Source of the DNA: Micavibrio sp.
GTDB lineage: Bacteria > Patescibacteriota > Minisyncoccia > Moranbacterales > GCA-2747515
Assembly: GCA_020718085.1 (NCBI GenBank)
Contig: DYDB01000001.1
Location: 47,384-111,383 of the forward strand
DNA length: 64,000 bases
Reading direction: 5' to 3'
Positions 13,285 through 59,489 of this stretch are shown here, in pieces. The translations under genes were made by a program, and so were the position numbers. The notes beneath the pieces are model-generated. The model ran no database searches, was not told the origin of the DNA, and saw only the letters and a program-made list of their open reading frames with translations. Numbering within the stretch: the stretch's first letter is position 1; the number at the start of each line of letters is the position of its first letter.

Positions 13285-13332
13285 GTCATTCCCGCGTAGC
13301 CTGCCTGCCGGTAGGCAGGGTCGGAATGACAA
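13285..13332. repeat. Family B repeat core (reverse orientation, palindromic)
   Basis: gcctgcctgccggtaggcagggtcggaatgac is the reverse complement of the B1/B2 core. It is flanked by a gtcattcc / ggaatgac inverted pair. Confidence 0.5.
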
Positions 13333-13402
13333 ATGTACAGATTTTTTATCAAATTATTCCGTATCAAAAATATAAATAAGGATTTAATGTAAACCAATTA
13401 TT

Positions 13403-23368: not shown

Positions 23369-23998
23369 ATGCAGAGTAATCTGAAAAAAATATTAGATGA
23401 TTTTAAGGACAAGCGATCTATTTATGAAGAGTTCTGTTTGGCGATGTATAAATTCTTGGATAGCATGCTTGTTATTGATGGTTGCAAATACCAGATATTT
23501 TATAGGATCAAAGAATTTGACAAACTTGAAGAAAAAATTATACGTAAAGAAAAAGAGGGGATCGTCTATACGAACCTTGAAGAATTGGAAGATTTGGCGG
23601 GTCTTCGAATCCTATTTTATCTCGAGTCAGATAAGGATAAATTTGTGAAAAAATTACTATCGGAATTGACGGGAGATGTTACTATTAAAAATCATAAAAA
23701 ATTATCCGGCTATGAAGCAACACACATCATTACAAGTTTTGGAGAAAAAAGGATCAGTTTGAGCGAATACAGCAAGTTTGAGGGATTGAAATGTGAAATA
23801 CAATTGACATCCATCTTGCATCATGCGTGGTCGGAAATTGAACATGACATGATCTACAAAGACACTTTGGGAGTCAAGAATAGTAAAGTGAAAAGTGTTT
23901 TTATAAAAAAAGAGATGAAAAAGATCCTATCAAATTATCTCATTAAGGCTTCCACTGAGCTGGACAATCTGGTCAAAAAAATTAAAAAAAGGAAATAA
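23369..23998 (+). CDS. RelA/SpoT-domain nucleotidyltransferase (small alarmone synthetase-like; possible toxSAS-type toxin)
   Basis: Motifs EDLAGLRILF, GYEATHII and EIQLTSILHHAWSEIEHDMIYK align with the RelQ/RelP synthetase motifs (DIAGLRI, GYRSxHL, EIQIRTxxMxxWAxxEHxxxYK). 209 aa. Lies in an AT-rich, codon-shifted island. Confidence 0.7.
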   Translation: MQSNLKKILDDFKDKRSIYEEFCLAMYKFLDSMLVIDGCKYQIFYRIKEFDKLEEKIIRKEKEGIVYTNLEELEDLAGLRILFYLESDKDKFVKKLLSELTGDVTIKNHKKLSGYEATHIITSFGEKRISLSEYSKFEGLKCEIQLTSILHHAWSEIEHDMIYKDTLGVKNSKVKSVFIKKEMKKILSNYLIKASTELDNLVKKIKKRK

Positions 23999-24119
23999 AA
24001 TGGCTTCACCCGTGCAGATAGGAATAGAACCAAAATTTGAGGCTAGGGAAGCCTTTTTTTGGTTTCAATCTTTTAGGATAAGAATGGAAGAGTGGAAATT
24101 TTTATGATAGAGTTTAATT

Positions 24120-25220
24120 ATGAAAGCAAAAGTTCATAAAATTGAAGACTTTGGTTATGATCCATTTTTTGAATCCAATCGTGTAAAACTCGGACTGGAT
24201 GTTTTTCATGTGGCTCGAGTGATCTCTGAACAAAAGGGAATTTATAAGGTTAAAAATGCCAATGGTGAATATTTGGCAAAAATAACCGGAAAACAAATTT
24301 TTAAAGCCTCTTCTAAGGAAGATTATCCGTCTGTGGGTGATTGGGTGGCAATTTCTGAATTGGAAGTGCATAAAGCAATGATCCGTAGTATATTACCGAG
24401 GAGAACAGTGATGAAGAGGAAATGCAGTGGTAAAAAAAATGAAACCCAAATAATAGCAACGAATATTGACGTGGCCTTTGTCATTGAATCAGTTGATAGG
24501 GACTATAATTTGAATCGATTTGAAAGATATTTTGCCATAGCGAATGATGGGGGCATAAAACCAGCTATCATATTGAACAAAGTAGATCTGATCTCCAAAG
24601 AAGAATTATATGCAAAAATTTCCCAAATAAAAGACAGATTCAAAGATGTTGAAGTCATTCCAACTAGCGCTGTGACGGATGAAGATCTGGATGAATTAAG
24701 GGGATATATAAAAAAGGGTAAAACGTATTGTTTTCTAGGTTCCTCCGGAGTGGGAAAATCTTCTTTGATAAATAAACTGATTGGTAGTGGGAGTGAGATA
24801 AAAACTGGAGACGTCGGTTTACGTTCCGGGAGAGGAAAGCATGTAACTACAACGAGAGAAATGTATTTTTTGAAAAATGGTGGCATTGTAATAGATACTC
24901 CCGGGATGCGAGAGGTGGGGATGACTGACACAACTGCTGGTGTAGATAATTTATTCGATGAGATCACAACTCTCGCCAAGAAATGTAAATTTATCGACTG
25001 TGATCATATTCATGAACCTAAATGCGAAGTTTTAGTTGCGCTAAAAGCAGGCCTGTTGGACAAAGAAAAGTATGCCAATTACATTCGATTAAAAAAAGAG
25101 TCTGAACATTATGAGATGACTCAACGTGAAAAAAAAGAAAAAGATCGAAAATTTGGTAAATTTATGAAAAATGCCAAGAAGGATTTGAAAAAGTATAAAA
25201 ACAAAAATTATAGTGTGTAA
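24120..25220 (+). CDS. rsgA: RsgA/YjeQ-type circularly permuted GTPase (ribosome small-subunit biogenesis GTPase family)
   Basis: N-terminal OB-like region. G4 NKVDL precedes G1 GSSGVGKSSLIN. GRGKHVTTTRE and IDTPGMRE motifs. C-terminal zinc finger CKFIDCDHIHEPKC. Lys-rich tail. Confidence 0.85.
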   Translation: MKAKVHKIEDFGYDPFFESNRVKLGLDVFHVARVISEQKGIYKVKNANGEYLAKITGKQIFKASSKEDYPSVGDWVAISELEVHKAMIRSILPRRTVMKRKCSGKKNETQIIATNIDVAFVIESVDRDYNLNRFERYFAIANDGGIKPAIILNKVDLISKEELYAKISQIKDRFKDVEVIPTSAVTDEDLDELRGYIKKGKTYCFLGSSGVGKSSLINKLIGSGSEIKTGDVGLRSGRGKHVTTTREMYFLKNGGIVIDTPGMREVGMTDTTAGVDNLFDEITTLAKKCKFIDCDHIHEPKCEVLVALKAGLLDKEKYANYIRLKKESEHYEMTQREKKEKDRKFGKFMKNAKKDLKKYKNKNYSV

Positions 25221-25346
25221 TCTGTAATTGGCGGTGGATTCATCGAAGATGGCTCTCGATAAATAGTTAATTCCCACTAAGTCTAAGTTTGCATTTTCTT
25301 AACAAAATGCTACTTTTAGAATAGCTTAATATTTAGATACAACCTA

Positions 25347-25661
25347 ATGTTCTGGCGAAAGCACAAAAATATACATTTAATTTCAGCAGTCTTTCTTGGT
25401 TGTTTATTTTTGTCTGGGTGTGACGATTCAAACAATCGACTAGAGGAAATTGAACAAGCAAGAGAAATGGGCTACGAGATGGGAATGGAGGAGGGTTATA
25501 GTGTTGGTATAGATGATGTAAAATCCGGACTTGTGTCAATTGAGGATACTGAGATTTGCTTGGATTACTATGAATTAGGCTATCAAGATGCTATCACTGA
25601 TATCGAGAAATACGGAATAACAAGAGTAAAGAATGAAGATTTGCCAAGAGAAGTTCAATAA
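25347..25661 (+). CDS. Small acidic lipoprotein, hypothetical
   Basis: Signal peptide with lipobox FLSGC, followed by an acidic E/G/Y-rich 80-aa region. Confidence 0.45.
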   Translation: MFWRKHKNIHLISAVFLGCLFLSGCDDSNNRLEEIEQAREMGYEMGMEEGYSVGIDDVKSGLVSIEDTEICLDYYELGYQDAITDIEKYGITRVKNEDLPREVQ

Positions 25662-25745
25662 TGATTATGAATGCAAAAAATTGTTAAAAATATTTTTGAC
25701 TAAATTTATTTTTTTAGTAAAATCCTGTTGAGTATTTGAAAAAAT

Positions 25746-26384
25746 ATGACCGAAGAAGAATATAAGAATAGATTTGAAAAGTTATATCAACTTCTAACAA
25801 GAGCTCATTTGTGTTTTTTTGTTTGGAAGGGTCTTAAAAATGTAAAATATCAACCTCAATTTGACAGAGATAAAAATTTTTGGAGTGCTGTCGTTCCTTC
25901 CCTAGAGTCATCGTGGCTTCAATCTTTAGCTAATATTTACGAAGAATCAGATTACAGCAGAAAGGATAAAATTATATCGGTATATTCATTGATAAATAAT
26001 CAAAAAGATGTAGAAAGAAAGGTGAGAGCGGAAGTTATTATTAATCAGAATCAATCCATAATTAAAAACATTTCAATTCTTAGGAATAATCAGTTAGCTC
26101 ATTATAATGCCAATCATTTATTAAACCCAAAAGAGTTATTGGAAAAATTTCCTGTGAAATATGGGGAAGTGGAAAGATTGCTAGAAATAACTGAAGAACT
26201 ATTACGTTGTCTGCACCCCGAAAACAATCATAGTTTTTCGTTTGAGGGATTTGATAAGGAATCACAACGGGATTCAACTTTAATTATGGATAGGATTGAG
26301 TATTATCTAAAGCAGGAAAAGAAACACTATGAGAAAATGAAAGATGAAAATAAGTATGTTCATTTTCCGCCTCAAAAAGACTGA
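25746..26384 (+). CDS. Hypothetical protein with an Rx5H (HEPN-like) motif; candidate Abi-type protein
   Basis: 212-aa all-helical-looking ORF. LRNNQLAHYNANH contains R-x5-H in a predicted helix, as in HEPN RNase families (Rx4-6H). No other motifs. Confidence 0.5.
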   Translation: MTEEEYKNRFEKLYQLLTRAHLCFFVWKGLKNVKYQPQFDRDKNFWSAVVPSLESSWLQSLANIYEESDYSRKDKIISVYSLINNQKDVERKVRAEVIINQNQSIIKNISILRNNQLAHYNANHLLNPKELLEKFPVKYGEVERLLEITEELLRCLHPENNHSFSFEGFDKESQRDSTLIMDRIEYYLKQEKKHYEKMKDENKYVHFPPQKD

Positions 26385-26539
26385 TTATTATCAAATTTTT
26401 TCTTAAATCGGATGTGTATACATTCGTTTTTTTCATAAAAATATCCCTAAAAACATTTATCACATCGTACAGATACAAAAAAGAGATTTTATGCAATCTC
26501 TTTTCGTGCTGAGAATTATGATATAATCACAGAATTCAT

Positions 26540-27109
26540 ATGCAAAACACTATCGAAAATAAAACTATTCAAAAAGAAGATTGGTCTGGAAAAAAACTAG
26601 GATCATTTGAAATTTCTGACTGTACATTCAACGGATGTGATTTTACGGAAACTGATTTTTCCGGAACGAAGTTCATTGATTGTATCTTCGATGGATGTAA
26701 TTTCTCGAACTCAAAAATATTAAATTGCAGTTTTTGCGACGTTACTTTTAAGGAATGTAAAATAAGTGGTGTGGTCTTTGGTGAAATAAATAAATTCTTA
26801 CTTTCTTGGAAATTTTATGATTGTGCCATAGATCTTTGCAGTTTCAGTATGTTGGATATCAAAAACTCCGAGTTTATTGCATGTGAGATCTACGAAACTG
26901 ATTTTGTGAACACTGATCTTAGTGAGTCTAATTTCTCACAATCTGATCTGAGGGGGAGTAAATTTCAAGATACAAATTTAAGTAAAGCTAATTTTGTGGG
27001 AGCAATAAATTATTTTATAGATCCTACAGCCAATAAGATCACAAAAGCGAGATTTTCATCACCGGAAGTGTTAGCTCTGCTTGCGGGTTTTGATATAACC
27101 ATTGAATAG
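26540..27109 (+). CDS. Pentapeptide-repeat protein (Qnr/MfpA-like fold)
   Basis: Tandem A(D/N)(L/F)xx pentapeptides throughout (CTFNGCDFTETDFSGTKFIDCIFDGCNFSNSKILNCSF...SDLRGSKFQDTNLSKANFVGA). Confidence 0.75.
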   Translation: MQNTIENKTIQKEDWSGKKLGSFEISDCTFNGCDFTETDFSGTKFIDCIFDGCNFSNSKILNCSFCDVTFKECKISGVVFGEINKFLLSWKFYDCAIDLCSFSMLDIKNSEFIACEIYETDFVNTDLSESNFSQSDLRGSKFQDTNLSKANFVGAINYFIDPTANKITKARFSSPEVLALLAGFDITIE

Positions 27110-27140
27110 ATTGAGAGCTTGCGCAATTATCATTATTTCT

Positions 27141-27198
27141 GTCATTCCGACCCTGCCTACCGGCAGGCAGGCTTCGACTTTGCTCAGGATGACAAGTG
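27141..27198. repeat. MITE-like repeat, family B (best copy)
   Basis: gtcattccgaccctgcctaccggcaggcaggcttcgactttgctcaggatgacaagtg. Internal palindrome cctgcctaccggcaggcagg. Near-identical to 6358-6416. Confidence 0.6.
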
Positions 27199-36903: not shown

Positions 36904-38031
36904 ATGTATAACAGTAAACCGGATGGTTTTCATTTTTTATTGGAATTTTTTGGGTGTGATATCAAGCAGATCAATGACATGGATTTTTGGCGCACAGAGC
37001 TCCACGCAGCAATCGAGGGCACGTCCATGGAATCATTGCATGATTTTTTCTTTAAATTCGAACCGCATGGCATTACGGGATATCTTCTTCTTTCTTCTTC
37101 ACATATCTCTATTCACACATGGCCGGAAAACGGGTATGTAGTGTGCGATGTTTTCACCTGCTCTACAGAAGTGGAGACAGAGAAAGCTGTGCAACATCTC
37201 AAGGATCAGATCACACATGATCGCGTAGAGGTAAAGAAGATCCAGCGTGGATTTAAGGTGTCACGCAAAGGTGGTGTAGTGCAAGATGTTGCGCAATGCA
37301 CGCTTGATCGACACTGTGTGAAACTGCCTGTGTATAGCACGGGAAAGAAAATGCCGTTGGATGTATTGCAGTTGATTGTGGAAATTGAAACAGCTGTGCA
37401 GAAGATCTCGATCGTTGATACACTGGAATTTGGGAAGTGCTTGATCATCAACGGAATATTGCATACAGCGGAAAAAGATCATTATCTCTATGACCGTGAG
37501 CTCATTAAGCAATTGCGGTCCAGCGATAAGGACATTCTCATTCTAGGTGGTGGTGATGGCTATGTGGCACGGCGTGTAATATCGGAAAATCCGAATGCAC
37601 AGATCAATGTGGATGTGGTGGACATGGATGTGGAAGTGGTCAAGGCATGTGAACGCTACTTGGGACAAGGTGTCTTTCAACGAAATGAGGCGCGGATCCA
37701 TATTGGAGATGCATTACATTTTCTCAAGATGACACGCAAGAAATATGACGGCATTATATTTGATCTCACAAAAGAACCGATCGGACGTGCAGAGGATGAA
37801 CAATTCATCCAGTTTTATAAAGATTTGTGTGCTTTGGCACATACACATACCAAAGACCAAGGATGGATTGCCATACAAGCAGGCACATCTTCTGTCGTAA
37901 AGAAATATATGGACACGGCAACGGTCATCACATCGATCTTGCATGATACGCGATGGAAAAAAATTGACCGCAGTGATGTCATGATCCCAAGTCATGGGGA
38001 AAATTATGCATTCCTCTTTGCAAAGAAATAA
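36904..38031 (+). CDS. Fusion: pyruvoyl-dependent S-adenosylmethionine decarboxylase (SpeH/class 1b) + spermidine synthase (aminopropyltransferase)
   Basis: N-terminal LLSSSHISIHTWPENGYVVCDVFTC (AdoMetDC proenzyme motif). C-terminal ILILGGGDGYVARRV...IIFDLTK (SpeE). 375 aa. Confidence 0.75.
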   Translation: MYNSKPDGFHFLLEFFGCDIKQINDMDFWRTELHAAIEGTSMESLHDFFFKFEPHGITGYLLLSSSHISIHTWPENGYVVCDVFTCSTEVETEKAVQHLKDQITHDRVEVKKIQRGFKVSRKGGVVQDVAQCTLDRHCVKLPVYSTGKKMPLDVLQLIVEIETAVQKISIVDTLEFGKCLIINGILHTAEKDHYLYDRELIKQLRSSDKDILILGGGDGYVARRVISENPNAQINVDVVDMDVEVVKACERYLGQGVFQRNEARIHIGDALHFLKMTRKKYDGIIFDLTKEPIGRAEDEQFIQFYKDLCALAHTHTKDQGWIAIQAGTSSVVKKYMDTATVITSILHDTRWKKIDRSDVMIPSHGENYAFLFAKK

Positions 38032-38053: not shown

Positions 38054-38803
38054 ATGGAAAATATCAACACAGGAGAAAAAAGGGAAGATGTCGTGAAGAT
38101 CACACAACCGATCTATGCAACAGGAGAGCAAATGGAGATCATTGTAAAAGAAAAATTAGCGGAGATGACGTCTGAATTTCAAAAGATCACCTTTGTGGAT
38201 ACAAAAGATTTTGGGCGATGTTTGATCATTGACGATGTGATTCAGACATCAGAAGCAGATCATGAAATTTATGATGCGGAAATGTTAAGTAGAATGAAAC
38301 CAACTGATCGCGATGTTATGATCCTAGGTGGTGGTGATGGATATATCGCTCAAATGGCAATAGCCAAAAATGATCAGGTGCATGTAACGATCGCTGATCT
38401 TGATAGTATGGTGGTGGAGGGATGTAAAAAATATCTCGATCAAAAAGTTTTTGAAGATGAACGGGTAAAATTACACATTGGTGACGCACTTGCGTATATG
38501 CGTGAAAGTGGGCAAGAATATGATGGTGTTGTATGTGATCTGACTGATGCACCGGTGGGCGCCAAAGAACTGGAAGAGTTTGAGAAGTTTTTTGAAGAGG
38601 TGATCATGTTGTCACATAAATGCATACGCAGTGGAGGATGGATGAGCTTTCAATCTGGTGCATCGGAAGTCTCGGAACAATTTATTAATTCTGTCGTTAT
38701 CGTTGAGGCTATTCTCAGGAAATATTTTAGCACTATAGAACGCAGTGACGTCATGATCCCGAGCTATGGAGAAAGTTGTGCATTTCTCTTTGCACAGAAA
38801 TAA
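38054..38803 (+). CDS. Spermidine synthase-like aminopropyltransferase (paralogue of the fused SpeE domain)
   Basis: VMILGGGDGYIAQMA. C-terminal DVMIPSYGESCAFLFAQK matches DVMIPSHGENYAFLFAKK in the upstream gene. Confidence 0.7.
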   Translation: MENINTGEKREDVVKITQPIYATGEQMEIIVKEKLAEMTSEFQKITFVDTKDFGRCLIIDDVIQTSEADHEIYDAEMLSRMKPTDRDVMILGGGDGYIAQMAIAKNDQVHVTIADLDSMVVEGCKKYLDQKVFEDERVKLHIGDALAYMRESGQEYDGVVCDLTDAPVGAKELEEFEKFFEEVIMLSHKCIRSGGWMSFQSGASEVSEQFINSVVIVEAILRKYFSTIERSDVMIPSYGESCAFLFAQK

Positions 38804-44856: not shown

Positions 44857-44941
44857 TTATGGTCTATAGTTTATGTTCTGAAATTTATTCAGGATGATAT
44901 ATAATATCCGCGATCTCTTTTGAAATGCTACCAAGGTGAAT

Positions 44942-44970
44942 TTGACAAAAAATGGAAAAAGCGATACTAT
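44942..44970 (+). promoter_or_regulatory. Sigma70-type promoter upstream of secE-nusG (TTGACA-17-TACTAT)
   Basis: TTGACA at 44942-44947, a 17-nt spacer, and TACTAT at 44965-44970. Confidence 0.45.
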
Positions 44971-45016
44971 GGTGATGTATCTAGAGCCCGAGGGGGCTTT
45001 TTAAAATCCACGAAAT

Positions 45017-45202
45017 ATGGAGAAAATCACACAATTTTTGCGGGAAGCGTATGGTGAATTGAGACGCGTTTCATGGCCATCACGCGAACAAACGATCCAG
45101 TACACAACTCTTGTGGTTGTGATCAGTATTGGTATAGCGCTCTTTTTGGGTCTTTTGGACTATTTGTTCAGTGACATCATAAAGAATGTGATCATCAAAT
45201 AA
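45017..45202 (+). CDS. secE: Preprotein translocase subunit SecE
   Basis: 61 aa with a single C-terminal TM. Position upstream of nusG-rplK-rplA. FLREAYGELRRVSWPSREQ motif. Confidence 0.8.
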   Translation: MEKITQFLREAYGELRRVSWPSREQTIQYTTLVVVISIGIALFLGLLDYLFSDIIKNVIIK

Positions 45203-45241
45203 AAAATTTTTAAGTAATTTGTATCGTAATATTTAGCATAT

Positions 45242-45787
45242 ATGGCAAAACAAACGCAACATCACGGTATAGCGTGGTATGTTCTTCATACATATTCCGG
45301 TTACGAGGATAATGTGGCCCGCAATTTGCGACAACGTATCGAGTCCATGGACATGCAAGATTTTATCTTTGATGTGATCGTGCCGGTGGAAAAAAAGATC
45401 AAGATCAAAAACAGCAAACGTGTAACAGTTGAAGAAAAGATCTATCCCGGATACGTTTTGGTTCAGATGGTGGTAACAGATGCATCATGGTATGTGGTAC
45501 GTAATACGCCAAATGTGACTGGATTTATCGGATTGGGCACAACGCCAACGCCGGTAGATGCAAATGAAATTCTCTCGATCAAGAAAAAAATGGGACAAAA
45601 CGAACCGCGATATCGTATTGACGTGAAAAAGGGAGAGAGTATAAAGATCGTCGATGGTCCGTTCAAAGATTTTGATGGTGAGGTAAAAGAAATTGATGAG
45701 GCAAAAGGAAAAGTGAAGGTACTCGTTCTCGTATTTGGTCGCGAAACACCGGTAGAATTGGACTTCCTCCAGATCAAAAAAATATAA
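45242..45787 (+). CDS. nusG: Transcription termination/antitermination factor NusG
   Basis: NGN domain WYVLHTYSGYE. KOW domain KIVDGPFKDFDGEV. Confidence 0.9.
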   Translation: MAKQTQHHGIAWYVLHTYSGYEDNVARNLRQRIESMDMQDFIFDVIVPVEKKIKIKNSKRVTVEEKIYPGYVLVQMVVTDASWYVVRNTPNVTGFIGLGTTPTPVDANEILSIKKKMGQNEPRYRIDVKKGESIKIVDGPFKDFDGEVKEIDEAKGKVKVLVLVFGRETPVELDFLQIKKI

Positions 45788-45842
45788 TATATCTAAACCT
45801 AACTACTTACTACGCACACTACTAACTACTAACTAATATATT

Positions 45843-46271
45843 ATGGCAGTAAAGAAAATCAAGACAGTGATCAAATTGCAGATCCAGGCAGGCAAAGCAA
45901 ATCCAGCTCCTCCAGTGGGACCGGCATTGGGTCAACACGGACTCAACATTCAGGATTTTTGTATGCAATTCAATGAGGCATCCAAAGAGCGCATGGGTGA
46001 TGTCGTTCCAGTTGAGATCACAGTATATGAAGATCGCACTTTCAGTTTTGAGATGAAGACATCTCCTGCATCAGAATTGCTCAAAAAAGCAGCTGGTGCA
46101 CAAAAAGGCGCAAGTAATCCTGTGACAGATAAGGTAGGTAAGGTGACAAAAGCACAGGTACGTGAAATTGCTGAGGTGAAGATGGTAGATCTCAATGCAG
46201 CAAGTGTGGAAGCAGCGATGAAGATCATTGAAGGCACAGCACGCTCAATGGGCATCACTGTGGAAGAATAA
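45843..46271 (+). CDS. rplK: 50S ribosomal protein L11
   Basis: [28 protein letters not shown] is the L11 signature. Confidence 0.95.
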
Positions 46272-46386
46272 TATTTGAATGAAGAATTAATAATGAAGAA
46301 TGAATAACATTTTTCACTATTAATTATTAATTGTTAATTAATTTCGTGGGAGAGTTGTATGACTCGTATGTACCACAAAAAATACT

Positions 46387-47058
46387 ATGAAAAGAAGCAA
46401 ACGATATAACAGTGCAATGGAGAAACGCACAAGTGAAAAAATGATCTTGGTAGACGCGGTAACTTTTGTGAAAGAAAGTGCTAAAGCAAAGTTTGATGAG
46501 TCAATTGAAGTGCATGTACGTCTCAATATTGACGCACGCAAGGGCGAACAAGCAGTGCGCGGTAGCGTTTCTTTGCCAAACGGCATCGGAAAGTCTGTAC
46601 GTGTTGGTGTGATCACAGAGGACAAAAAAGATGAGGCTCTCAAAGCAGGTGCAGATGTTGTCGGCGGACAAGAATTGATCGACAAGATCAAAGCCGGTGC
46701 GTTGCCAGAAGTGGATATTCTCGTGGCAACACCTGATATGATGCCAAAACTTGCGCCGGCAGCTCGTATCCTTGGACCACGTGGTCTCATGCCAAGTCCA
46801 AAAACAGATACAGTAACGTCAAATGTAGGTGAAGCGGTAGAATCTCTCAAAAAAGGTAAGGCAAATTTCAAAAATGACAACTCCGGTAATGTGCATCAAG
46901 TGATCGGTAAAGCGTCTTTCGATGCAGAAAAACTTACACAAAATTATACAGCATTCATTGATGCAATAAAATTGTGTCGCAATGAAGCACATAAAGGACA
47001 ATTTATCGCATCGATCAGTATGTGTTCAACGATGGGTCCAGCAGTGGTCATTGAATAA
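46387..47058 (+). CDS. rplA: 50S ribosomal protein L1
   Basis: Full-length similarity to L1 (VHVRLNIDARKGEQAVRGSVSLPNG...). Position after rplK. Confidence 0.95.
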   Translation: MKRSKRYNSAMEKRTSEKMILVDAVTFVKESAKAKFDESIEVHVRLNIDARKGEQAVRGSVSLPNGIGKSVRVGVITEDKKDEALKAGADVVGGQELIDKIKAGALPEVDILVATPDMMPKLAPAARILGPRGLMPSPKTDTVTSNVGEAVESLKKGKANFKNDNSGNVHQVIGKASFDAEKLTQNYTAFIDAIKLCRNEAHKGQFIASISMCSTMGPAVVIE

Positions 47059-47182
47059 TATTACACATTTTACAAAAATGTCTGCAGAATATTTCTGTGG
47101 ACTTTTTTGTTGGAATGGTATATACTTTTCAAGTAAAACTTGCATGTACGGCAAAACATAATTATTAAATATATTACACTTT

Positions 47183-47752
47183 ATGCACAAAGGAAAAATC
47201 ATTCTTGGATTAGTGGGAGAAACCGGAAGTGGAAAAGATACGGTTGCGCATTATCTTGATAGACGGTACAACGTGGAATTGTTACGATTCAGTCGTCCAC
47301 TCAAAAAGACTCTCGATCTTTTCTTTGAGCAATCTTCCAAAGAAGATCAGGCATGGTTGTATTTGGTGTTTAAAGAGCGATTTGGTGAAGATGTTTTACA
47401 TAAAGGTGTTGCGCGATATATTGCACAGCATGACGGCATTATGTGTGTCAATGGCATGCGCATGATGATGGATCTGGATTTTATTCGTTCATTCGAAAAC
47501 AATTATATTATTTACGTAACAGCTGATCAGAAATTACGTTGGAAACGTACGGCAAGTCGCGGAGAGAAATCCGATGATGATCAGACATTTGAAGAATTTC
47601 AAAAATTTGAAGCTGCAGCAGAAACGGAACAGGCGATTCCGGCGATTGGAAAAAATGCAGATTTTGTCGTACGCAATGAAGGTACGATGGATGAGCTTCT
47701 TTGGCAGGTAGATGATGTGATGAAGACCATCTTGAAAAGTCAATCAAAATAA
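47183..47752 (+). CDS. P-loop kinase, T4 gp1-like dNMP kinase family (paralogue A)
   Basis: GLVGETGSGKDT P-loop resembles the T4 dNMP kinase SGKDT loop. Paralogous to 48358-48909. Confidence 0.5.
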   Translation: MHKGKIILGLVGETGSGKDTVAHYLDRRYNVELLRFSRPLKKTLDLFFEQSSKEDQAWLYLVFKERFGEDVLHKGVARYIAQHDGIMCVNGMRMMMDLDFIRSFENNYIIYVTADQKLRWKRTASRGEKSDDDQTFEEFQKFEAAAETEQAIPAIGKNADFVVRNEGTMDELLWQVDDVMKTILKSQSK

Positions 47753-47770
47753 TTATATTAAATCAATCTT

Positions 47771-48268
47771 ATGAAAAAAAGCGTAAAAAAACATAAGAGA
47801 GCAACATGGGATGAGTATTTTCTAAATCTTGTGGAGTTGGTGGGTTCACGAGGCACATGTGATCGTGGGCGCAGTGGTTGTGTTGTAGTAAAAGATAAAA
47901 GAATTATTGCGACAGGGTATGTGGGTTCTCCTATGGGTATCGGACATTGTGATGAGTTGGGACATGAGATGCATACAGTGGTGCAAGAAAACGGTGAAAC
48001 ATCACAGCATTGCATTCGCACTACGCATGCAGAGCAGAATGCAATTGTTAATGCGGCACGATTTGGAACAGCGCTAGATGGTGCAACGTTGTATTGTCAT
48101 ATGACACCATGTTATGTATGTGCAAAAATGATTATCAACGCCGGTATAAAAAAAGTTGTTTGTAACAAGGATTATCATAAAGGACAGAGAAGTAAAGAAA
48201 TATTCAAAGAAGCGGGAGTTGATTACGTGTTGATTAACGAGGAAACTGAAACATATAAAAACATGTAA
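47771..48268 (+). CDS. dCMP deaminase (CMP/dCMP-type zinc deaminase)
   Basis: HAEQNAI and PCYVCAKMI zinc-binding motifs. Confidence 0.8.
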   Translation: MKKSVKKHKRATWDEYFLNLVELVGSRGTCDRGRSGCVVVKDKRIIATGYVGSPMGIGHCDELGHEMHTVVQENGETSQHCIRTTHAEQNAIVNAARFGTALDGATLYCHMTPCYVCAKMIINAGIKKVVCNKDYHKGQRSKEIFKEAGVDYVLINEETETYKNM

Positions 48269-48357
48269 TGTTTGATCTTCTAATAACTGTAAATCATAAA
48301 GAATAATCGGATATCGACTAAAGCTTTATAACTTTATAAACTTTTAACTTAGAAAAT

Positions 48358-48909
48358 ATGGCAAAGATCATTATTGGGCTTGCGGGAGAGATGGCAAGTG
48401 GCAAGGGGACAGTTGCACAGTATTTGGCCACGGAGAAAAAAGCGTCAACGCACCGCTTTTCAACGATGTTGCGTGACGTTTTGGATCGATTGCACTTGGA
48501 ACAATCGCGAGATCATATGCAAAAACTTTCTTTCATTATACGTGAAACATATGGACAGGATGCTCTTGCACATGTGATGGCGGAAGATGTGAAAAAGGAC
48601 ACTGCAGAGGTGATCGTGGTGGACGGTGTGCGACGTATGGATGATATTGTGTTTCTCAAGCAAATACCGGAATTCAAACTTGTGTATATTGATGTCAACT
48701 TAGAAACACGTTATGAACGCATTATAAAGCGCAGTGAAAATCCCGATGATCAAAACAAAACCTTTGAACAGTTCGTTACGGAAAGCAAAGCTGATGCGGA
48801 GTTGCAAATCGCAGGACTCAAAGAATATGCAGATATTGTGATTGATAACAATGGGGATATCGAGAGTCTTTATGCACAAATAGATATTCTTCTGGCGGAC
48901 GTGGAGTAA
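48358..48909 (+). CDS. P-loop kinase, T4 gp1-like dNMP kinase family (paralogue B)
   Basis: GLAGEMASGKGT P-loop. Shared blocks with 47183-47752 (RFS, DGxRxxxD, DDQxxTFExF). Confidence 0.5.
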   Translation: MAKIIIGLAGEMASGKGTVAQYLATEKKASTHRFSTMLRDVLDRLHLEQSRDHMQKLSFIIRETYGQDALAHVMAEDVKKDTAEVIVVDGVRRMDDIVFLKQIPEFKLVYIDVNLETRYERIIKRSENPDDQNKTFEQFVTESKADAELQIAGLKEYADIVIDNNGDIESLYAQIDILLADVE

Positions 48910-49046
48910 TTTACAATTTTCAATTCACAATTTACAATCAATTTTTCAATTTAGCAATTTTCAAAAATTGAGCAATTGAAAAATTCTGTCAGATGTATTT
49001 TTATGTGTAGTGCCTTGCAAGAGTGGATTTTATGACCCGCTTCTTT

Positions 49047-49204
49047 TCTTTGCGCGTCATAATAAAAATTTGCGAGGCACAGTATAATTACGCTCCTGCA
49101 AAACGTCATCGCGAGGAATGTAGCGACGAAGCGATCTTTTCCTTGCACATGCAATTTTTCGTACAATAACCGAGATTGCTTCGTTACTGTGTTCCTCGCA
49201 AAGA
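49047..49204. repeat. MITE-like repeat, family A (copy 2, with nested hairpin)
   Basis: Ends in gattgcttcgttactgtgttcctcgcaaagac. Left arm gcgaggaatgtagcgacgaagcgatc. Nested tttgcgagg...cctgcaaa hairpin. Confidence 0.55.
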
Positions 49205-49356
49205 CAATAAGTCGCGTGTGTTTTTGGATAAAAGTGAATAGTAAAAAATTTTTGACATTGTTTTTGTGATGTGACATGATGATATATTCGGTCAATGGTG
49301 ACTGGAGAAAGATCGTTTTTTAACATATAAAAATATATGATAAAGGAGGTGTTCTG

Positions 49357-49521
49357 ATGCGATGTGGTCACTCGTTTTGTCGATGTGGGTATAGTAATAT
49401 AAGAAGCTGCAAACGCTTTGGACGCTTCTATGTCTTTATATGTCGTCATTGTGGTCATATACGGGCAAAACATGAGTGTGAGGTTCAATTTGTTGTTATG
49501 GCGCAGTTCAAAAGAAAATAA
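49357..49521 (+). CDS. Small Cys/His-rich zinc-ribbon-like protein (54 aa), hypothetical
   Basis: Strong RBS aaaggagg 7 nt upstream. MRCGHSFCRCGYSNIRSCKRFGRFYVFICRHCGHIRAKHEC. Too short for the supplied ORF track. Confidence 0.4.
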   Translation: MRCGHSFCRCGYSNIRSCKRFGRFYVFICRHCGHIRAKHECEVQFVVMAQFKRK

Positions 49522-49548
49522 GATGTCAACAAAAAAGGAGAATCTACC

Positions 49549-50589
49549 ATGGCTGAAGCGGGCGCAAAACGTTCAAAAAAAACTGTTGCGGTAGGGAAGA
49601 TGTATCGGATTATCGATCCATCAGCCACTATTGCTTCTCATCTCGATGGTAAATCAGTTGAAGAACGTATTGAAGAGTGTGGACGGATTTGCTACAAAAC
49701 AGAAGATAAAATTACGGGGATGTCTGCAATCGGTTTTGGACGAAAAATGGTTGTGGATATGCATAACTCCGTTTTGGAAATGGCAGTGGTGACATATCAT
49801 GTACTTGCGATGGGTGATGTGCGCAAGTTGCGTGAGGTGTCGAAGTATGTGGTCATCGACGAATATGAAGAGGGCTATCTCATCACAGGAAGTATTCGTG
49901 CATTTCGTGAAGCATATATGTTGTGTCCGCAAGATACACTGATCAAGGGTCTTGTGCATGCTGTTGCAAAGCGTCACCCGATCTTTTTTGAAGACATGGT
50001 TTTGGGTGGTGACAATCGCATGGAGCAACTCATCGAAAAAGTCGAGCTCAACATGCTTGATGGAGAGATCAGAGCGTCATCTCCCAAGCTGTGGCGCAGG
50101 CATCGATTTGTCGCAGTGAAATTCATTGTCAATCGTGCTGTGACGCATGAACTTGTCAGGCATCGTCCGTGCGCATTTTTGCAAGAAAGCCAACGGTATT
50201 GCAATTATGGGCAGGATCGGTTCGACAGGTTGGTGACGTTTATCAAGCCACTGTTCTTTCCAAAAGGAACACCAGAATACAGTGAGTGGTTGAGGTCAGT
50301 GAGATTTTCGGCAAAACAGTATCTCAAACTTCTCGAAACATCATCGCCACAAGCAGCGCGTACCGTTCTGATCAATAGTTGCAAGACGGAGATCATTGTT
50401 TTTTGCAATATCGTGCAATGGAACCATATACTGCACATGCGTACAAGTCCGGCAGCAGAGCCATCAATGCGTGAAGTAATGATCCCGCTGCAGGCACAAA
50501 TGCGTGAGCTTTTCTCGGGAGAATCGTTTGATAAGCGCTCTCCTGAAGGCTTCCTCGTCTCGAAGGAAGAAGCGGAAGTTGAGGCATAA
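49549..50589 (+). CDS. thyX: Flavin-dependent thymidylate synthase ThyX
   Basis: ThyX signature RHRxxxxxxSQRY is present as RHRPCAFLQESQRY. RBS aaaaaggag. Confidence 0.8.
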   Translation: MAEAGAKRSKKTVAVGKMYRIIDPSATIASHLDGKSVEERIEECGRICYKTEDKITGMSAIGFGRKMVVDMHNSVLEMAVVTYHVLAMGDVRKLREVSKYVVIDEYEEGYLITGSIRAFREAYMLCPQDTLIKGLVHAVAKRHPIFFEDMVLGGDNRMEQLIEKVELNMLDGEIRASSPKLWRRHRFVAVKFIVNRAVTHELVRHRPCAFLQESQRYCNYGQDRFDRLVTFIKPLFFPKGTPEYSEWLRSVRFSAKQYLKLLETSSPQAARTVLINSCKTEIIVFCNIVQWNHILHMRTSPAAEPSMREVMIPLQAQMRELFSGESFDKRSPEGFLVSKEEAEVEA

Positions 50590-50732
50590 GCGTAAGAAAA
50601 ATAATGTTGTAGATAAAGCCGCCCATGGGAACACCTGTGGGCGGTCATTTTTTAAATAATTGAATAGTTACCTTTGAATATTATGGAAAAAGTGCTAGAA
50701 TAACGGGGTTAATACTAAGTTTTATAAAAAAC

Positions 50733-51062
50733 ATGAATTTTACTGAATATCAAAATGAGTCGCGTAAAACGGCACTTTATCCCAATGTGGGGAATAATTT
50801 TGTGTATCCGACGCTTGGGCTTTCCGGGGAAGCAGGGGAAGTGGCAGATAAACTCAAAAAAACGATTCGTGACGATGGTGGTGTGTTGACAGAAGAAAAA
50901 AAACGAGAAGTTGGGAAAGAATTGGGTGATGTGCTCTGGTATGTGTCGCAAGTAGCATCAGAGCTCGAGTTGTCGCTTGATGAGATCGCGCAGAAAAATT
51001 TGGAAAAGCTGTTGTCACGTATGGATCGAGGTGTGATCAAGGGGAGTGGAGACAATAGATGA
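50733..51062 (+). CDS. MazG-like nucleoside triphosphate pyrophosphohydrolase
   Basis: GLSGEAGEVADKL and ELGDVLWYV helices of the all-alpha NTP-PPase fold. Confidence 0.7.
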   Translation: MNFTEYQNESRKTALYPNVGNNFVYPTLGLSGEAGEVADKLKKTIRDDGGVLTEEKKREVGKELGDVLWYVSQVASELELSLDEIAQKNLEKLLSRMDRGVIKGSGDNR

Positions 51063-51184: not shown

Positions 51185-52663
51185 ATGACCACAAAATACA
51201 ATGTAACGATCGGTATGGAGATCCATGTGGAACTCAAAACAAAATCCAAAATGTTCTCCAGTGCGCCAAATCATTTGGGTATGGAAAAGACGCCAAATAC
51301 ATCAATTGACCCGGTAACGATGGCACAACCTGGTAGTTTACCGGTGCCGAACCGGCAAGCAATCGAATTTGTACAAAAAGCGGGGCTGGCATTGGAGTGC
51401 GAGATTGCTCGCAAAAGCAAATTCGATCGAAAAAATTATTTTTATCCCGATTTGCCAAAAGGATATCAAATTTCGCAATATGATATGCCGCTGTGTGAAC
51501 ATGGAAAGGTAATGATCGGTGACAAAGAAATTGGCATTACACGCATTCACATGGAAGAAGATACGGGTAAATCTACACATCCATCCGGCATGTCATATTC
51601 ACTTGTGGATCTTAATCGTGCAGGTGTGCCACTTATGGAGCTTGTAACTGAACCGGATATTACCAGTGGAGCGCAGGCAAGACTTTTTTGTCAGAAATTA
51701 CAGCAGATCTTTCGTTATATAGATATTGCCGATGCGGATATGGAAAAGGGACAGATGCGTTGTGAGGTGAATATTTCTCTTTACAAAAATGGTTCAGATC
51801 GCTTAAGTGGTCAAAAGGTGGAGATCAAAAATCTCAGCTCGTTCCGTGTTGTGGAAAGGGCCATTGATTATGAAATTGAAAGACAGACGAAAGCACTTGA
51901 GGGTAATGAGGTGATCGTACAGGAAACGCGCGGATGGGACGATGTAAAAGGCAAAACCGTGTCACAACGCAAAAAAGAAAATGCGCATGACTACCGTTAC
52001 TTCCCAGAACCGGATATTCCTCCGATGACGTTTACTGATGCATATGTGGAACAATTGCGTCGTACACTTCCAGAGTTGCCACGACAAAAGGAAGAACGTT
52101 TTACCGCAGAATATAATTTGAGTGCGCAAAATTGTGGTGTGATCACGGCTGATATTGACATGGCAAATTATTTTGAACAGGTGGTAAGTGAGATCATGGA
52201 TAAGAAAGCATCCGGAGAAATGCATGCGGATTCCGAAAAAACAATAAAACTTGCTGCAAACTATTTGGTGAGTGAGGTGCAGAAGCATCTCGTAAAGGAT
52301 GGACAAAGAATTAGTGAGACAAAAATATCTGCAGAAAATTTTGCAGAACTGATGGCGATCATTGCTGATGGCACGATCAACTCTTCTGCCGCACAGATCG
52401 TATTGGAAGAAATGTTCTATGGGGAAGAAGATGATCCGAGTCGCATCATCGAAGCAAAAAATCTTGCGCAAGTGTCGGACGTTGGTGCATTGGAGCAACA
52501 AGTTGATGAGGTGATCGCGTCAAATGAACAATCTGTTGTGGATTATAAAGCAGGGAAGGAAAATGCCATCAAATACCTTATGGGACAAGTAATGAAAGTA
52601 TCGGGAGGTAAGGCAAATCCGCAAATGGTGATGGAAATTCTTGTAAAAAAATTGGCTGAATAA
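51185..52663 (+). CDS. gatB: Asp-tRNA(Asn)/Glu-tRNA(Gln) amidotransferase subunit B
   Basis: N-terminal IGMEIHVEL...KMFSSAP and full-length GatB/YqeY architecture. Confidence 0.9.
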   Translation: MTTKYNVTIGMEIHVELKTKSKMFSSAPNHLGMEKTPNTSIDPVTMAQPGSLPVPNRQAIEFVQKAGLALECEIARKSKFDRKNYFYPDLPKGYQISQYDMPLCEHGKVMIGDKEIGITRIHMEEDTGKSTHPSGMSYSLVDLNRAGVPLMELVTEPDITSGAQARLFCQKLQQIFRYIDIADADMEKGQMRCEVNISLYKNGSDRLSGQKVEIKNLSSFRVVERAIDYEIERQTKALEGNEVIVQETRGWDDVKGKTVSQRKKENAHDYRYFPEPDIPPMTFTDAYVEQLRRTLPELPRQKEERFTAEYNLSAQNCGVITADIDMANYFEQVVSEIMDKKASGEMHADSEKTIKLAANYLVSEVQKHLVKDGQRISETKISAENFAELMAIIADGTINSSAAQIVLEEMFYGEEDDPSRIIEAKNLAQVSDVGALEQQVDEVIASNEQSVVDYKAGKENAIKYLMGQVMKVSGGKANPQMVMEILVKKLAE

Positions 52664-52670
52664 AATAGAC

Positions 52671-52820
52671 ACCCTCATCCGCCCTTCGGGCACCCTGCCT
52701 ACCGGACAGGCAGGCTTCTCCCATGGGGAGAAGGGGTAAGAAGAAAGAATAAGAGTAAGAAAATTTAAAAAACATTTAAGCCCCCTCTCCCTCTGGGAGA
52801 GGGTTGGGGTGAGGGTGATA
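52671..52820. repeat. Composite GC-rich repeat module upstream of DUF559 gene
   Basis: accctcatccgcccttcgggcacc + family B core + ttctcccatggggagaagggg + ccctctccctctgggagagggttggggtgagggtg. The modules recur at 53202-53326. Confidence 0.55.
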
Positions 52821-52847
52821 ATGTAGATTTTTAGAGGTAAAGATCTT

Positions 52848-53198
52848 ATGTATAATACTTCTATCTCAAAAGCACAATTGTTACGTAAAAAACAAACGCC
52901 ACAAGAAATAAAAATGTGGGCGCGATTGCGCAATCGTCAGTTTCATGACTTAAAATTCCGTAGACAATGTGTGATCGGTCGATATATTGTGGATTTTCTT
53001 TGCATGGAAAGCAAACTAATTATTGAAATTGACGGATGGCAGCATAAGCAAGGATTTTCCGGAATTGAAGAAATTGAACGTACGAAATTTTTAGAAAAAG
53101 AGGGTTATCACATTGTGCGTTTTTGGAATAATGAGATCGATCAAAATATTGATGGTGTGTTCTTGCGGTTAGAGGAGGAAATTGATGATCGTCTTTGA
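52848..53198 (+). CDS. DUF559 endonuclease-domain protein (Vsr-like fold)
   Basis: QTPQEIKMWARLRNRQ...KFRRQ...GRYIVDFLC...LIIEIDGWQH is typical of DUF559. Confidence 0.7.
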   Translation: MYNTSISKAQLLRKKQTPQEIKMWARLRNRQFHDLKFRRQCVIGRYIVDFLCMESKLIIEIDGWQHKQGFSGIEEIERTKFLEKEGYHIVRFWNNEIDQNIDGVFLRLEEEIDDRL

Positions 53199-58551: not shown

Positions 58552-58649
58552 GTCATTGCGAGAAGCGTAGCAACGAAGCAATCTTGAGCATTAAACAAAA
58601 CTACAACATATCTGAATGAGATTTCTTCGTCGTTCCTTCTCGCAATGAC
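58552..58649. repeat. MITE-like repeat, family A (copy 3)
   Basis: gtcattgcgagaagcgtagcaacgaagcaatc ... gatttcttcgtcgttccttctcgcaatgac terminal inverted repeats. Confidence 0.6.
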
Positions 58650-58760
58650 GGCTGCTTTATTACAAACAATTGACGATTTAATATTATTTTGGTATAATGC
58701 TTTTTCTGTTAAGGGTGGATAAAATCAACGTTCTTTAATTTAAACGTGTTGGAGGTAATC

Positions 58761-59489
58761 ATGAAGAAGCTTACTGCAGAAAAAGCGCAAAAATTGTATC
58801 AAGCGCGATTTGAAAAAACGGCACGCTATGTTGCACAAATGTTATGTAAAAATTTGGACAAGGCATTGAGAAAGGCCTGCAAAACGGATGGCCGTAACTG
58901 TGCATCTCACACTTTTCAAATAGCAGGTCTGTACCAGTCAGAAGATTATGTTCTACCTGACGGCATGTTGGAGTGGAGACATAGATTGCCGGAAGATTCT
59001 GAGAACAGCCGGAAGTTGGTCAAGCAAATTGTGGTATTAGTGCAACAATACTATACAGGTTGGGATGTAAGATTGATGTATAATAAAATCGATTATGAAT
59101 TTTATAATAATACCTTAGTCTTTGATGCGAAATTTGTGGCTGAGGATATGCAAATTTGTCGACCGGAGGATTTTGATGCTGTATTTTATGCGCGTGTGAA
59201 TGATATGGTGCAGTACTTTGTGCAAAATATCCGAATTGCAATTAATAAGCAATTGGGCACGCGATCGATTCGTGAGGGATTTCGCTCAGAAGCAATCATA
59301 CATCATGTTGAACGATTGTGTTTTAATGAAGAAGAAGCTACAGCTGTTTTCAATAGAGTGAAAGAGGCTTTGTTTCAAGATGGGTGGCATATCAGCATAT
59401 GCGACATTGACATAAAAAAAAGCAACATGCTATATCCTCGTACATTATATAATTTTGAGATCAAGAGGTTGCCCGTGTCATCATCGTGA
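58761..59489 (+). CDS. Hypothetical protein
   Basis: RBS ttggaggt 6 nt upstream of the ATG. 242 aa. No recognisable motifs. Confidence 0.45.
   Translation: MKKLTAEKAQKLYQARFEKTARYVAQMLCKNLDKALRKACKTDGRNCASHTFQIAGLYQSEDYVLPDGMLEWRHRLPEDSENSRKLVKQIVVLVQQYYTGWDVRLMYNKIDYEFYNNTLVFDAKFVAEDMQICRPEDFDAVFYARVNDMVQYFVQNIRIAINKQLGTRSIREGFRSEAIIHHVERLCFNEEEATAVFNRVKEALFQDGWHISICDIDIKKSNMLYPRTLYNFEIKRLPVSSS

Follow-up and report, generated by a model that had tools for sequence, protein, structure and literature searches.

A chromosomal gene block that probably turns deoxycytidine into thymidine nucleotides in Moranbacteria, with two highly conserved small kinases as its unusual parts

The window, the whole 64,000-nucleotide stretch of DNA that was analysed, carries in order rplA, the kinase gene K1, a dCMP deaminase gene, the kinase gene K2, a 54-aa ORF, thyX, mazG, and gatB. 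All seven features listed between rplA and gatB in the first-pass annotation are present, with rplA upstream and gatB downstream, and the ORFs have the coordinates and carry the motifs ascribed to them. The block is chromosomal, is inherited within the ultra-small Moranbacteria/CPR lineage, and probably turns deoxycytidine into thymidine nucleotides. The dC-to-dT pathway itself is textbook; the two highly conserved small kinases are the sole unusual parts. The features are as follows.

47080..47102, + strand, terminator-like hairpin with T-run in the rplA–K1 gap (consensus scan only)
47183..47752, + strand, K1, 189-aa P-loop protein of (d)NMP-kinase fold, UPF0200 / dNMP-kinase-like (motif GETGSGKDT)
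47742..48352, no strand assigned, swapped cassette comprising the deaminase gene and both spacers (nucleotide comparison with the relative L168)
47771..48268, + strand, zinc-type dCMP deaminase with HAE and PCxxC motifs, here named type A (PF00383, TIGR02571, 2HVV)
48358..48909, + strand, K2, 183-aa paralogue of K1 (motif GEMASGKGT)
49105..49205, no strand assigned, palindromic dispersed repeat of ~100 nt (inverted arms and copies elsewhere)
49252..49280, + strand, sigma-70-type promoter of the ORF54–thyX unit, TTGACA-17-CATGAT with TG (scan match 10/12)
49357..49521, + strand, 54-aa ORF rich in Cys and Arg, preceded by a strong Shine-Dalgarno and directly upstream of thyX (positional homologues)
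49549..50589, + strand, ThyX, flavin-dependent thymidylate synthase, long form, 346 aa (PF02511)
50618..50645, + strand, strong terminator-like hairpin 3' of thyX (12-bp stem, 8 GC pairs, T-run)
50733..51062, + strand, MazG-type NTP pyrophosphatase, small all-alpha, 109 aa (PF03819, phrog_229)

The block appears to comprise three units, with boundaries drawn from consensus scans only: K1–deaminase–K2, the small ORF and thyX with their own promoter, and mazG, the last possibly continuing into gatB. In particular, the hairpin at 47080..47102, a consensus-scan match, suggests that K1 begins a transcription unit apart from rplKA. The promoter block TTTTTGACAT…ATGATG.T.TA is kept in the window and in the relatives L168, L169, L004, and L002, whichever gene precedes it. 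The hairpin 3' of thyX is also found after thyX of L168.

Profile searches bear out the identities given earlier to the deaminase, ThyX, and MazG. The deaminase, with its HAEQNAI and PCYVC motifs, scores 82.2 bits on PF00383 (cut-off 25) and 128 bits on TIGR02571 (ComEB), and its best PDB match is 2HVV (E 5e-29). ThyX carries the motif RHRPCAFLQESQRY and scores 98.9 bits on PF02511 (cut-off 24.8) and 71.2 bits on TIGR02170, under the cut-off of 87.9. It has 3041 homologues and keeps RHR, ESQRY, and the remaining invariant columns. MazG scores 42.4 bits on PF03819 (cut-off 22), matches phrog_229 over its full length (E 7.6e-36), and is 68–94% identical among relatives at the same position. The three proteins are ordinary representatives of the families that serve the canonical bacterial dTMP pathway (ComEB/Dcd-type dCMP deaminase, ThyX, Tmk, Dut, and MazG), and the block follows the same logic. 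It differs from that pathway in having two extra kinases and neither Tmk nor Dut. The window ThyX differs from canonical ThyX in being of the long form (308–350 aa) and in having Ala where RHRxxS usually has Ser; this replacement of the first Ser of RHRPCS (RHRPCA) is shared by L168, L004, and L005, with Ser in most homologues.

The 54-aa ORF does have the ribosome binding site credited to it, AAAGGAGGTG, five bases 5' of the ATG. Its positional homologues are 63% identical in L168 (88 codons, running into thyX) and 37% identical in L169 (64 codons); the ORF is absent in L004 and L005. Profile searches with the ORF gave no family match, and a search of its region for an RNA structure signal gave none (z -0.67). 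By sequence comparison, two relatives keep the ORF 5' of thyX, under weak constraint.

The closest relative, L168, carries a different deaminase cassette. Nucleotide homology extends over 44940–47741 at 86% and resumes at 48353 at 83%, but none to L168 was found across 47742..48352, which holds the deaminase gene and both spacers. The K1 and K2 proteins of the two genomes are 98% and 95% identical, and the deaminases only 30%. The window deaminase is instead 81% identical to that of L011 and 77% to that of L015. The locus records an exact dCMP deaminase gene swap between two otherwise near-identical genomes.

K1 and K2 are paralogues, as had been proposed (32% identity, E 3e-30). Their description as T4 gp1-like stands in a loose sense: PHROG 139 matches both over the full length (K1, E 1.1e-17, residues 3–185; K2, E 1.2e-17, residues 1–181), but the Pfam model DNMK (PF21448) reaches only the N-terminal 57 residues of K1 (30.0 bits, cut-off 27.1; residues 8–64, profile positions 3–58 of 232) and scores K2 under the cut-off, at 23.2 bits. 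The best NCBIfam match for both is NF006226 (UPF0200 / PRK08356), at 66 bits for K1 and 77.8 bits for K2, both below the cut-off of 189. Among solved structures, the closest relative is archaeal UPF0200 SSO1041, ahead of CoaE and the T4 dNMP kinase (1DEK); the match of K2 to PDB 3LW7 has an E-value of 4e-8. Identity to this family (Sulfolobus SSO1041, PDB 3LW7 and 3H0K, "adenylate kinase-related protein") is nevertheless only about 20%. The family is archaeal, and SSO1041 was crystallised with AMP; we know of no linkage of it to thymidylate genes. T4 gp1 is longer (241 aa, compared with 183–189 aa), and, unlike it and other phage dNMP kinases, K1 and K2 are chromosomal and form a conserved pair that flanks a deaminase. 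The view that they are not cellular Tmk or Cmk is upheld. K1 scores 15.4 bits on the Tmk model PF02223 (cut-off 27), unlike the Tmk genes of relatives, which score 45–75 bits, and K2 is not listed; on the Cmk models, K2 reaches 15.3 bits for Pfam PF02224 (cut-off 26) and 16.8 bits for TIGR00017 (cut-off 135.55).

The predicted structure of K1 (pLDDT 92) has an NMP-kinase fold, and its viral structural neighbours are mostly annotated as dNMP kinases. The P-loop and the LID arginines are fully conserved. Kinases of this family occur fused to a dUTPase (P0485) and as tandem kinase–kinase fusions (P0407 and P0430). K1 is conserved like a ribosomal protein gene, being 98% identical to its L168 counterpart compared with 93% for rplA. 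The dN/dS ratio is 0.015 for K2, 0.10 for ThyX, and 0.47 for the 54-aa ORF. A K1/K2 profile matches some 10,000 clusters formed at 50% identity, and automatic annotations of the family read "hypothetical", "AAA ATPase", or "dephospho-CoA kinase".

Many genomes of Candidatus Moraniibacteriota share the order rplA–K1–deaminase–K2–thymidylate synthase–(Tmk)–MazG/dUTPase–gatB. In L004, L005, and L168 the arrangement secE-nusG-rplK-rplA-K1-deaminase-K2-ThyX-MazG-gatB-DUF218-miaA-thrS-dnaE is identical, and the block is still recognisable at 45% K1 identity, and at 37% in Buchananbacteria. We counted linkage in 47 non-redundant K1 loci, each with 6 kb or more of downstream sequence. K2 lies alongside K1 in 36 of them, and a dC-deaminating enzyme is present in 35 (11 type-A dCMP deaminase, 16 type-B, 8 dCTP deaminase, DCD). 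Thymidylate synthase is found in 32/47 (7 long ThyX, 10 ThyX of about 450 aa, 15 ThyA), and MazG or dUTPase in 22/47. Counting against the linkage, the five loci without any pathway gene have K1 alone after rplA (within 8 kb). Every other slot is refilled by non-orthologous enzymes of the same step and K1 and K2 persist, making the block a clean natural case of slot-by-slot non-orthologous replacement inside one operon. This genomic context ties K1 and K2 to dC→dT conversion.

These observations make it likely that the block is a set of pyrimidine deoxynucleotide housekeeping genes, vertically inherited in Candidatus Moraniibacteriota (Patescibacteria/CPR), in which K1 and K2 phosphorylate dNMPs. 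MazG may hydrolyse dCTP and/or dUTP to the monophosphate; the zinc deaminase, by strong homology, would convert dCMP to dUMP, and ThyX, by equally strong homology, would methylate dUMP to dTMP. The dCMP→dUMP→dTMP route proposed earlier, with MazG feeding or proof-reading it, is thus a reasonable reading, given the identities of the three enzymes. According to one report, the human MazG-like dCTP pyrophosphatase DCTPP1 is central in dCTP, dTTP, and dUTP pool balance (PMC7162842). From their fold, family, and context, K1 and K2 would phosphorylate the deoxynucleoside monophosphates of the pathway.

The first-pass annotation regarded the block as a phage-type module inserted beside rplA, or possibly a remnant of a phage nucleotide-metabolism cassette. 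The five enzyme families of the block are all common in phages (PHROG 139, 174, 85, and 229), MazG and the deaminase are 56% (Gordonia phage MazG) and 45% identical to phage proteins, and the block contains a mobile palindromic repeat. A phage origin is nonetheless very improbable and is contradicted by the Moraniibacteriota synteny, the K1 identities, and the ordinary GC content. Block and flanks are syntenic across a phylum-level clade, and neither an integrase gene nor structural or other phage genes lie nearby. K1 and K2 are 20–30% identical to their best matches in 50,697 phage genomes and in IMG/VR contigs, compared with 45–98% for K1 in Moraniibacteriota, and ThyX is about 52% identical to cellular ThyX (308-aa proteins of Desulfobulbaceae and others) but 29–31% to phage ThyX. 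No more credible is the reading of K1 and K2 as dephospho-CoA kinases, which some automatic annotations favour. On TIGR00152 (cut-off 65.55) they score 29.1 and 27.0 bits, and matches to Pfam CoaE (PF01121) are confined to 22–28 P-loop residues; K2 just passes that cut-off (27.6 versus 27, the sole excess) through 22 P-loop residues only. CoA synthesis also gives no sense to two paralogues flanking a dC deaminase in a thymidylate block. Somewhat less remote, though still improbable, is a role in which K1 and K2 partner the deaminase as nucleotide sensors or regulators, a housekeeping equivalent, in separate proteins, of the kinase-like domain in anti-phage dCTP deaminases (NF041025; PADLOC "dCTPase"). 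These defence proteins likewise pair a kinase-like P-loop domain and a cytidylate-deaminase domain, and homology to them is weak. The kinase-like region of the PADLOC model is matched full length by K1 (E 4e-9) and K2 (E 2e-10), both kinases also match NF041025, the deaminase core matches both models, and in S. pombe Tad2 (PDB 7EEY match) a deaminase is fused to a kinase-like domain. The NF041025 scores of K1, the deaminase, and K2 are, however, 23.5, 56.4, and 24.7 bits against a cut-off of 400, and the deaminase does far better on ordinary dCMP deaminases (ComEB and 2HVV, above). The anti-phage enzyme is one protein of about 437 aa, whereas K1, the deaminase, and K2 are separate and lie in housekeeping synteny, not in a defence island. 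Moreover, K1 and K2 stay where the zinc deaminase is gone or replaced by the unrelated DCD fold, and the full conservation of P-loop and LID arginines is what active kinases would show.

A more serious alternative, put forward in the first-pass annotation and possible but doubtful, is that K1 and/or K2 is the organism's only thymidylate kinase, a phage-type-related dNMP kinase having replaced Tmk to give a self-contained dCMP→dTDP route. There is precedent in Pseudomonas putida KT2440, in which a T4-like dNMP kinase (PP_1964) is the sole thymidylate kinase (PMC10653934). No Tmk is found in the block of the window or of its nearest relatives (L168, L004, L005, L009, L013, L014, and L015), and there is no tmk within the 64-kb window. 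Among the best 120 homologues of one Moranbacteria Tmk, a search confined to a single Tmk type and reaching down to about 55% identity, none is encoded on a close relative's 469-kb contig; several divergent Tmk types, however, occur in relatives. Canonical Tmk, sometimes with ThyA, shares one block with both kinases in 9 of the 19 relatives whose block is complete from K1 to gatB. Therefore, K1 and K2 do not as a rule stand in for Tmk, and a dTMP-kinase role is not general. Since those relatives also carry Tmk, K1 and K2 must do something else or additional there, for example by phosphorylating salvaged dCMP, dUMP, or dGMP. In the clade without Tmk in the block, dTMP→dTDP would be one plausible job.

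Within the preferred reading of housekeeping dNMP kinases, we tentatively consider that K1 and K2 might form a Patescibacteria-wide pair, either a heterodimer or enzymes of sequential/complementary specificities, that re-phosphorylates scavenged deoxynucleotides and, in Tmk-less Moranbacteria, this one included, also performs the essential conversion of dTMP to dTDP. If so, they would represent a cellular counterpart, conserved to the grade of a ribosomal protein, of the dNMP kinases of phages T4/T5, and CPR bacteria would have in them a core enzyme of DNA-precursor metabolism that has gone unrecognised. To our knowledge, CPR/Patescibacteria lack de novo nucleotide synthesis, and dNTP pool balancing is therefore central to their host dependence. 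The block draws attention to two unannotated, very strongly conserved kinases as components of this machinery and yields a clear, testable hypothesis on their role.

The element between K2 and the 54-aa ORF is an imperfect palindrome with 33-nt arms (49105–49137 and 49173–49205), 76% complementary, and a 35-nt loop. It is absent from the K2–thyX spacer of L168, L004, and L005; L168 has a copy at another intergenic site, between thyX and mazG, and L161 also has copies at other sites. A second full copy lies in the window at about 58553–58648, and the window contains three occurrences of the motif GCGAG-N10-ACGAAGCRATC, where 0.06 would be expected. With inverted repeats at its ends and several copies at scattered sites, the element is a candidate MITE, as it had been called; the coordinates first given, 49047–49204, were rough, and its true extent is 49105–49205.

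The thymidylate block of the window lies between rplK and rplA on the upstream side and gatB on the downstream side. All features of the first-pass annotation were found where it had placed them. The block and its predicted signals are composed as follows:

47080-47102, terminator-like hairpin after rplA (consensus match)
47183-47752, K1, the first of two small P-loop kinases (189 aa; GETGSGKDT)
47771-48268, dCMP deaminase (HAEQNAI and PCYVC)
48358-48909, K2, the second kinase (183 aa)
49105-49205, palindromic element of ~100 nt
49252-49280, predicted promoter TTGACA-17-CATGAT before the small ORF and thyX (consensus match and conservation)
49357-49521, Cys/Arg-rich small ORF (54 aa), preceded by AAAGGAGGTG
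49549-50589, ThyX, containing RHRPCAFLQESQRY
50618-50645, strong predicted terminator after thyX (consensus match; also in L168, the closest relative)
50733-51062, MazG (109 aa)

K1 and K2 are true paralogues (32% identity, E 3e-30), as had been proposed. Family searches also uphold the identities given to the deaminase (PF00383, 82 bits), ThyX (PF02511, 98.9 bits), and MazG (PF03819, 42 bits; phrog_229, E 8e-36). The top PDB match of the deaminase is the Streptococcus mutans dCMP deaminase 2HVV (E 5e-29); MazG has no match in a PDB sequence search at E ≤ 0.01.

Both kinases score below the cut-offs of the Tmk, Cmk, Adk, dNK, and NCBIfam CoaE models. K2 is barely over the cut-off of Pfam CoaE (27.6 vs 27), with an alignment of only 22 P-loop residues, and K1 and K2 reach 66 and 78 bits with NCBIfam PRK08356, far under its 189-bit cut-off. 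By sequence, no solved protein is nearer than the archaeal UPF0200 protein SSO1041 (3LW7/3H0K), which a K1-family profile matches at E 1e-13, followed by adenylate kinase 1 (5e-6), T4 gp1 (2e-5), and CoaE (2e-5). Among viral predicted structures (BFVD), the neighbours of K1 are annotated mostly as dNMP kinases. The earlier label 'T4 gp1-like' is right only in a loose sense: PHROG 139 ('dNMP kinase') matches both kinases over their full length (E 1e-17), but Pfam DNMK, the T4 gp1 family, places K1 alone above its cut-off (30.0 vs 27.1 bits) through the N-terminal 57 residues only, and SSO1041 is nearer than T4 gp1. On the profile, Pfam, PHROG, NCBIfam, and structure-neighbour results, K1 and K2 are predicted to be NMP-kinase-fold members of the UPF0200/CoaE/T4-Dnk branch. 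The family is a large one: matches at E ≤ 1e-3 span about 9,992 clusters (50% identity), of which 287 still match at E ≤ 1e-30. All 38 sequences compared retain the P-loop, an 'NG/DG-x-R' motif, and three LID arginines without change, a pattern that would be expected of active kinases.

All K1 loci were surveyed by mapping reference proteins with tblastn and Pfam; the counts given here are for the 47 non-redundant loci in which 6 kb or more follow K1. K2 is present in 36 loci and a dC-deaminating enzyme in 35, the latter being the window's dCMP deaminase type (11), a second type ~32% identical to it (16), or the unrelated DCD (8). Thymidylate synthase occurs in 32 of the 47, as long ThyX (7), ThyX of ~450 aa (10), or ThyA (15); Tmk occurs in 18 and MazG or dUTPase in 22. 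Five loci have none of the deaminase, K2, thymidylate synthase, Tmk, and MazG/dUTPase. Thus, non-orthologous enzymes interchange at each pathway step while K1 and K2 persist, and the evolution of the block is cassette-like. Because the two kinases stay while the surrounding enzymes swap, there is strong guilt-by-association evidence that they act in dC→dT nucleotide conversion. Database fusions add support to this context-based role: one protein joins a kinase of the K1/K2 family to a dUTPase (P0485), and two carry two such kinases in tandem (P0407 and P0430). The usual partner of DCD is dUTPase, that of dCMP deaminase MazG. MazG would supply dCMP or dUMP from the triphosphate, a step that fits this pairing. 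The human MazG-like dCTP pyrophosphatase DCTPP1 is reported to be central to the balance of dCTP, dTTP, and dUTP pools (PMC7162842).

The first-pass annotation had also raised the idea that K1 or K2 serves as thymidylate kinase. There is a precedent in Pseudomonas putida KT2440, the sole thymidylate kinase of which is a T4-like dNMP kinase (PMC10653934). Tmk is absent from the block in the window and in its nearest relatives (L168, L004, L005, L009, L013, L014, and L015), and neither a Walker-A scan nor tblastn with a Moranbacteria Tmk as query detected a canonical Tmk in the window's 64 kb. A close relative's 469-kb contig is not among the matches listed in a metagenome scan with a Tmk alignment; it is likewise the source of none of the best 120 homologues in a protein search with the Tmk of locus L020, a weak indication. 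However, canonical Tmk stands alongside K1 and K2 in 9 of the 19 blocks that span K1 to gatB in full (L008, for example). Therefore, K1 and K2 are not simply Tmk analogues, and their identity as the thymidylate kinase is unproven.

The block had been suggested to be the remnant of a phage cassette, and we examined this against a phage genome collection (50,697 genomes), IMG/VR, and BFVD. The top kinase matches are 24–30% identical in the phage genomes and 20–30% identical, across most of the protein, in IMG/VR contigs. ThyX shares ~52% identity with 308-aa cellular ThyX proteins vs 29–31% with crAss-like phage ThyX. MazG (56%) and the deaminase (45%) do resemble phage proteins, which reflects families often carried by phages, not recent transfer. 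GC content is ordinary, and there are no phage structural or integration genes nearby. The order secE-nusG-rplK-rplA-K1-deaminase-K2-ThyX-MazG-gatB-DUF218-miaA-thrS-dnaE is shared by the window and its closest relatives, L004, L005, and L168. A K1-alignment scan of species-representative genomes gave 79 loci, with K1 45–83% identical and nearly all titles naming Candidatus Moraniibacteriota or other Patescibacteria; the K1 of L168, a genome that came from a separate search, reaches 98%. The conserved synteny, the remoteness of the kinases from phage homologues, the cellular-like ThyX, and the ordinary GC content lead us to reject a phage insert or relic. The block is an ordinary pathway within a conserved chromosomal neighbourhood.

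The interesting residue of the locus is the kinase pair, which is conserved at ribosomal-protein grade and biochemically uncharacterised, along with the cassette-like evolution described above. Literature searches on UPF0200/SSO1041 and on CPR thymidylate metabolism returned nothing specific, and the P-loop domain is not among the topics of the AvcD paper. A tandem K2 copy (K1-deaminase-K2-K2') is seen in several relatives (L009, L010, L011, L015, L016, and L042); therefore, the kinase family is still expanding within the block.

The dCMP deaminase gene is swapped exactly in place between the window (47742-48352) and L168 (4445-5048). Nucleotide homology ends at the end of K1 and returns at the start of K2; rplK, rplA, K1, K2, MazG, and gatB are 93–99% identical, and the deaminase only 30%. 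The window's allele is 81% identical to that of L011 and 77% to that of L015, both more distant relatives than L168.

The rplA and thyX terminators and the thyX promoter are predicted signals, consensus matches backed by conservation; the promoter is kept in relatives with either K2 or def upstream. Of the window's 59 gene starts, only 7 follow a strong Shine-Dalgarno motif; the leaders of most genes are therefore AT-rich and lack it. The exceptions include the 54-aa ORF (upstream stretch 49340-49356) and thyX (upstream stretch 49530-49548), and a GGAGG-type motif is retained before long-form thyX in the 8 relatives checked.

Counterparts of the 54-aa ORF lie directly 5' of thyX in L168 (63% amino acid identity; reading through 88 codons) and in the relative L169 (37%; 64 codons), with four cysteine positions conserved; L004 and L005 lack it. 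Between the window and L168, dN/dS is 0.47 for this ORF, 0.10 for ThyX, and 0.015 for K2. The region has no known family, Rfam match, or stable RNA fold. The ORF may encode a small protein or leader peptide; its earlier label as a zinc ribbon is not established. A structured RNA or riboswitch in the thyX leader was rejected for lack of signal (nothing relevant in Rfam; folding z-score -0.67), the covariation test being uninformative with three sequences only. In some relatives thyX appears damaged. In L002/L003 (9983-10684) the first ~120 codons are deleted and the small-ORF start is joined to ThyX residue ~117; in L004 (9687-10738) the gene is broken up, giving overlapping ORFs of 105 aa and 245 aa.

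The palindromic element, previously called a MITE, has a second full copy at ~58553-58648, upstream of 58746-59489, and one copy in L168 at another intergenic site. It is a dispersed repeat and a putative MITE. A separate 48-nt repeat family (…GTCATTCCGACCCTGCCTACCGGCAGGCAGG…) has inverted copies at 13295-13342 and 27129-27176, 88% complementary.

Elsewhere in the window, the adjacent genes 36904-38031 and 38054-38803 have a common direct repeat (37535-37590 and 38316-38371; 71% identical). The Pfam scan covered the second gene alone and matched it to spermidine synthase, so that tandem paralogy of the two is only a guess. A possible small island of defence or accessory genes lies at 23369-27109, a low-GC stretch (0.31 at 25-27 kb) that adjoins a four-tRNA gene cluster. 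Genes for a small RelA/SpoT-like protein, for a HEPN AbiU2 protein, and for a pentapeptide-repeat protein lie within it. Shortly after gatB is a DUF559 endonuclease-like gene (52848-53198; also 52520-52933 on the opposite strand). Relatives have a GIY-YIG gene at this position or, in L002, a four-helix protein of the 23S-rRNA-IVS type. The position appears to be a hotspot of small selfish genes.
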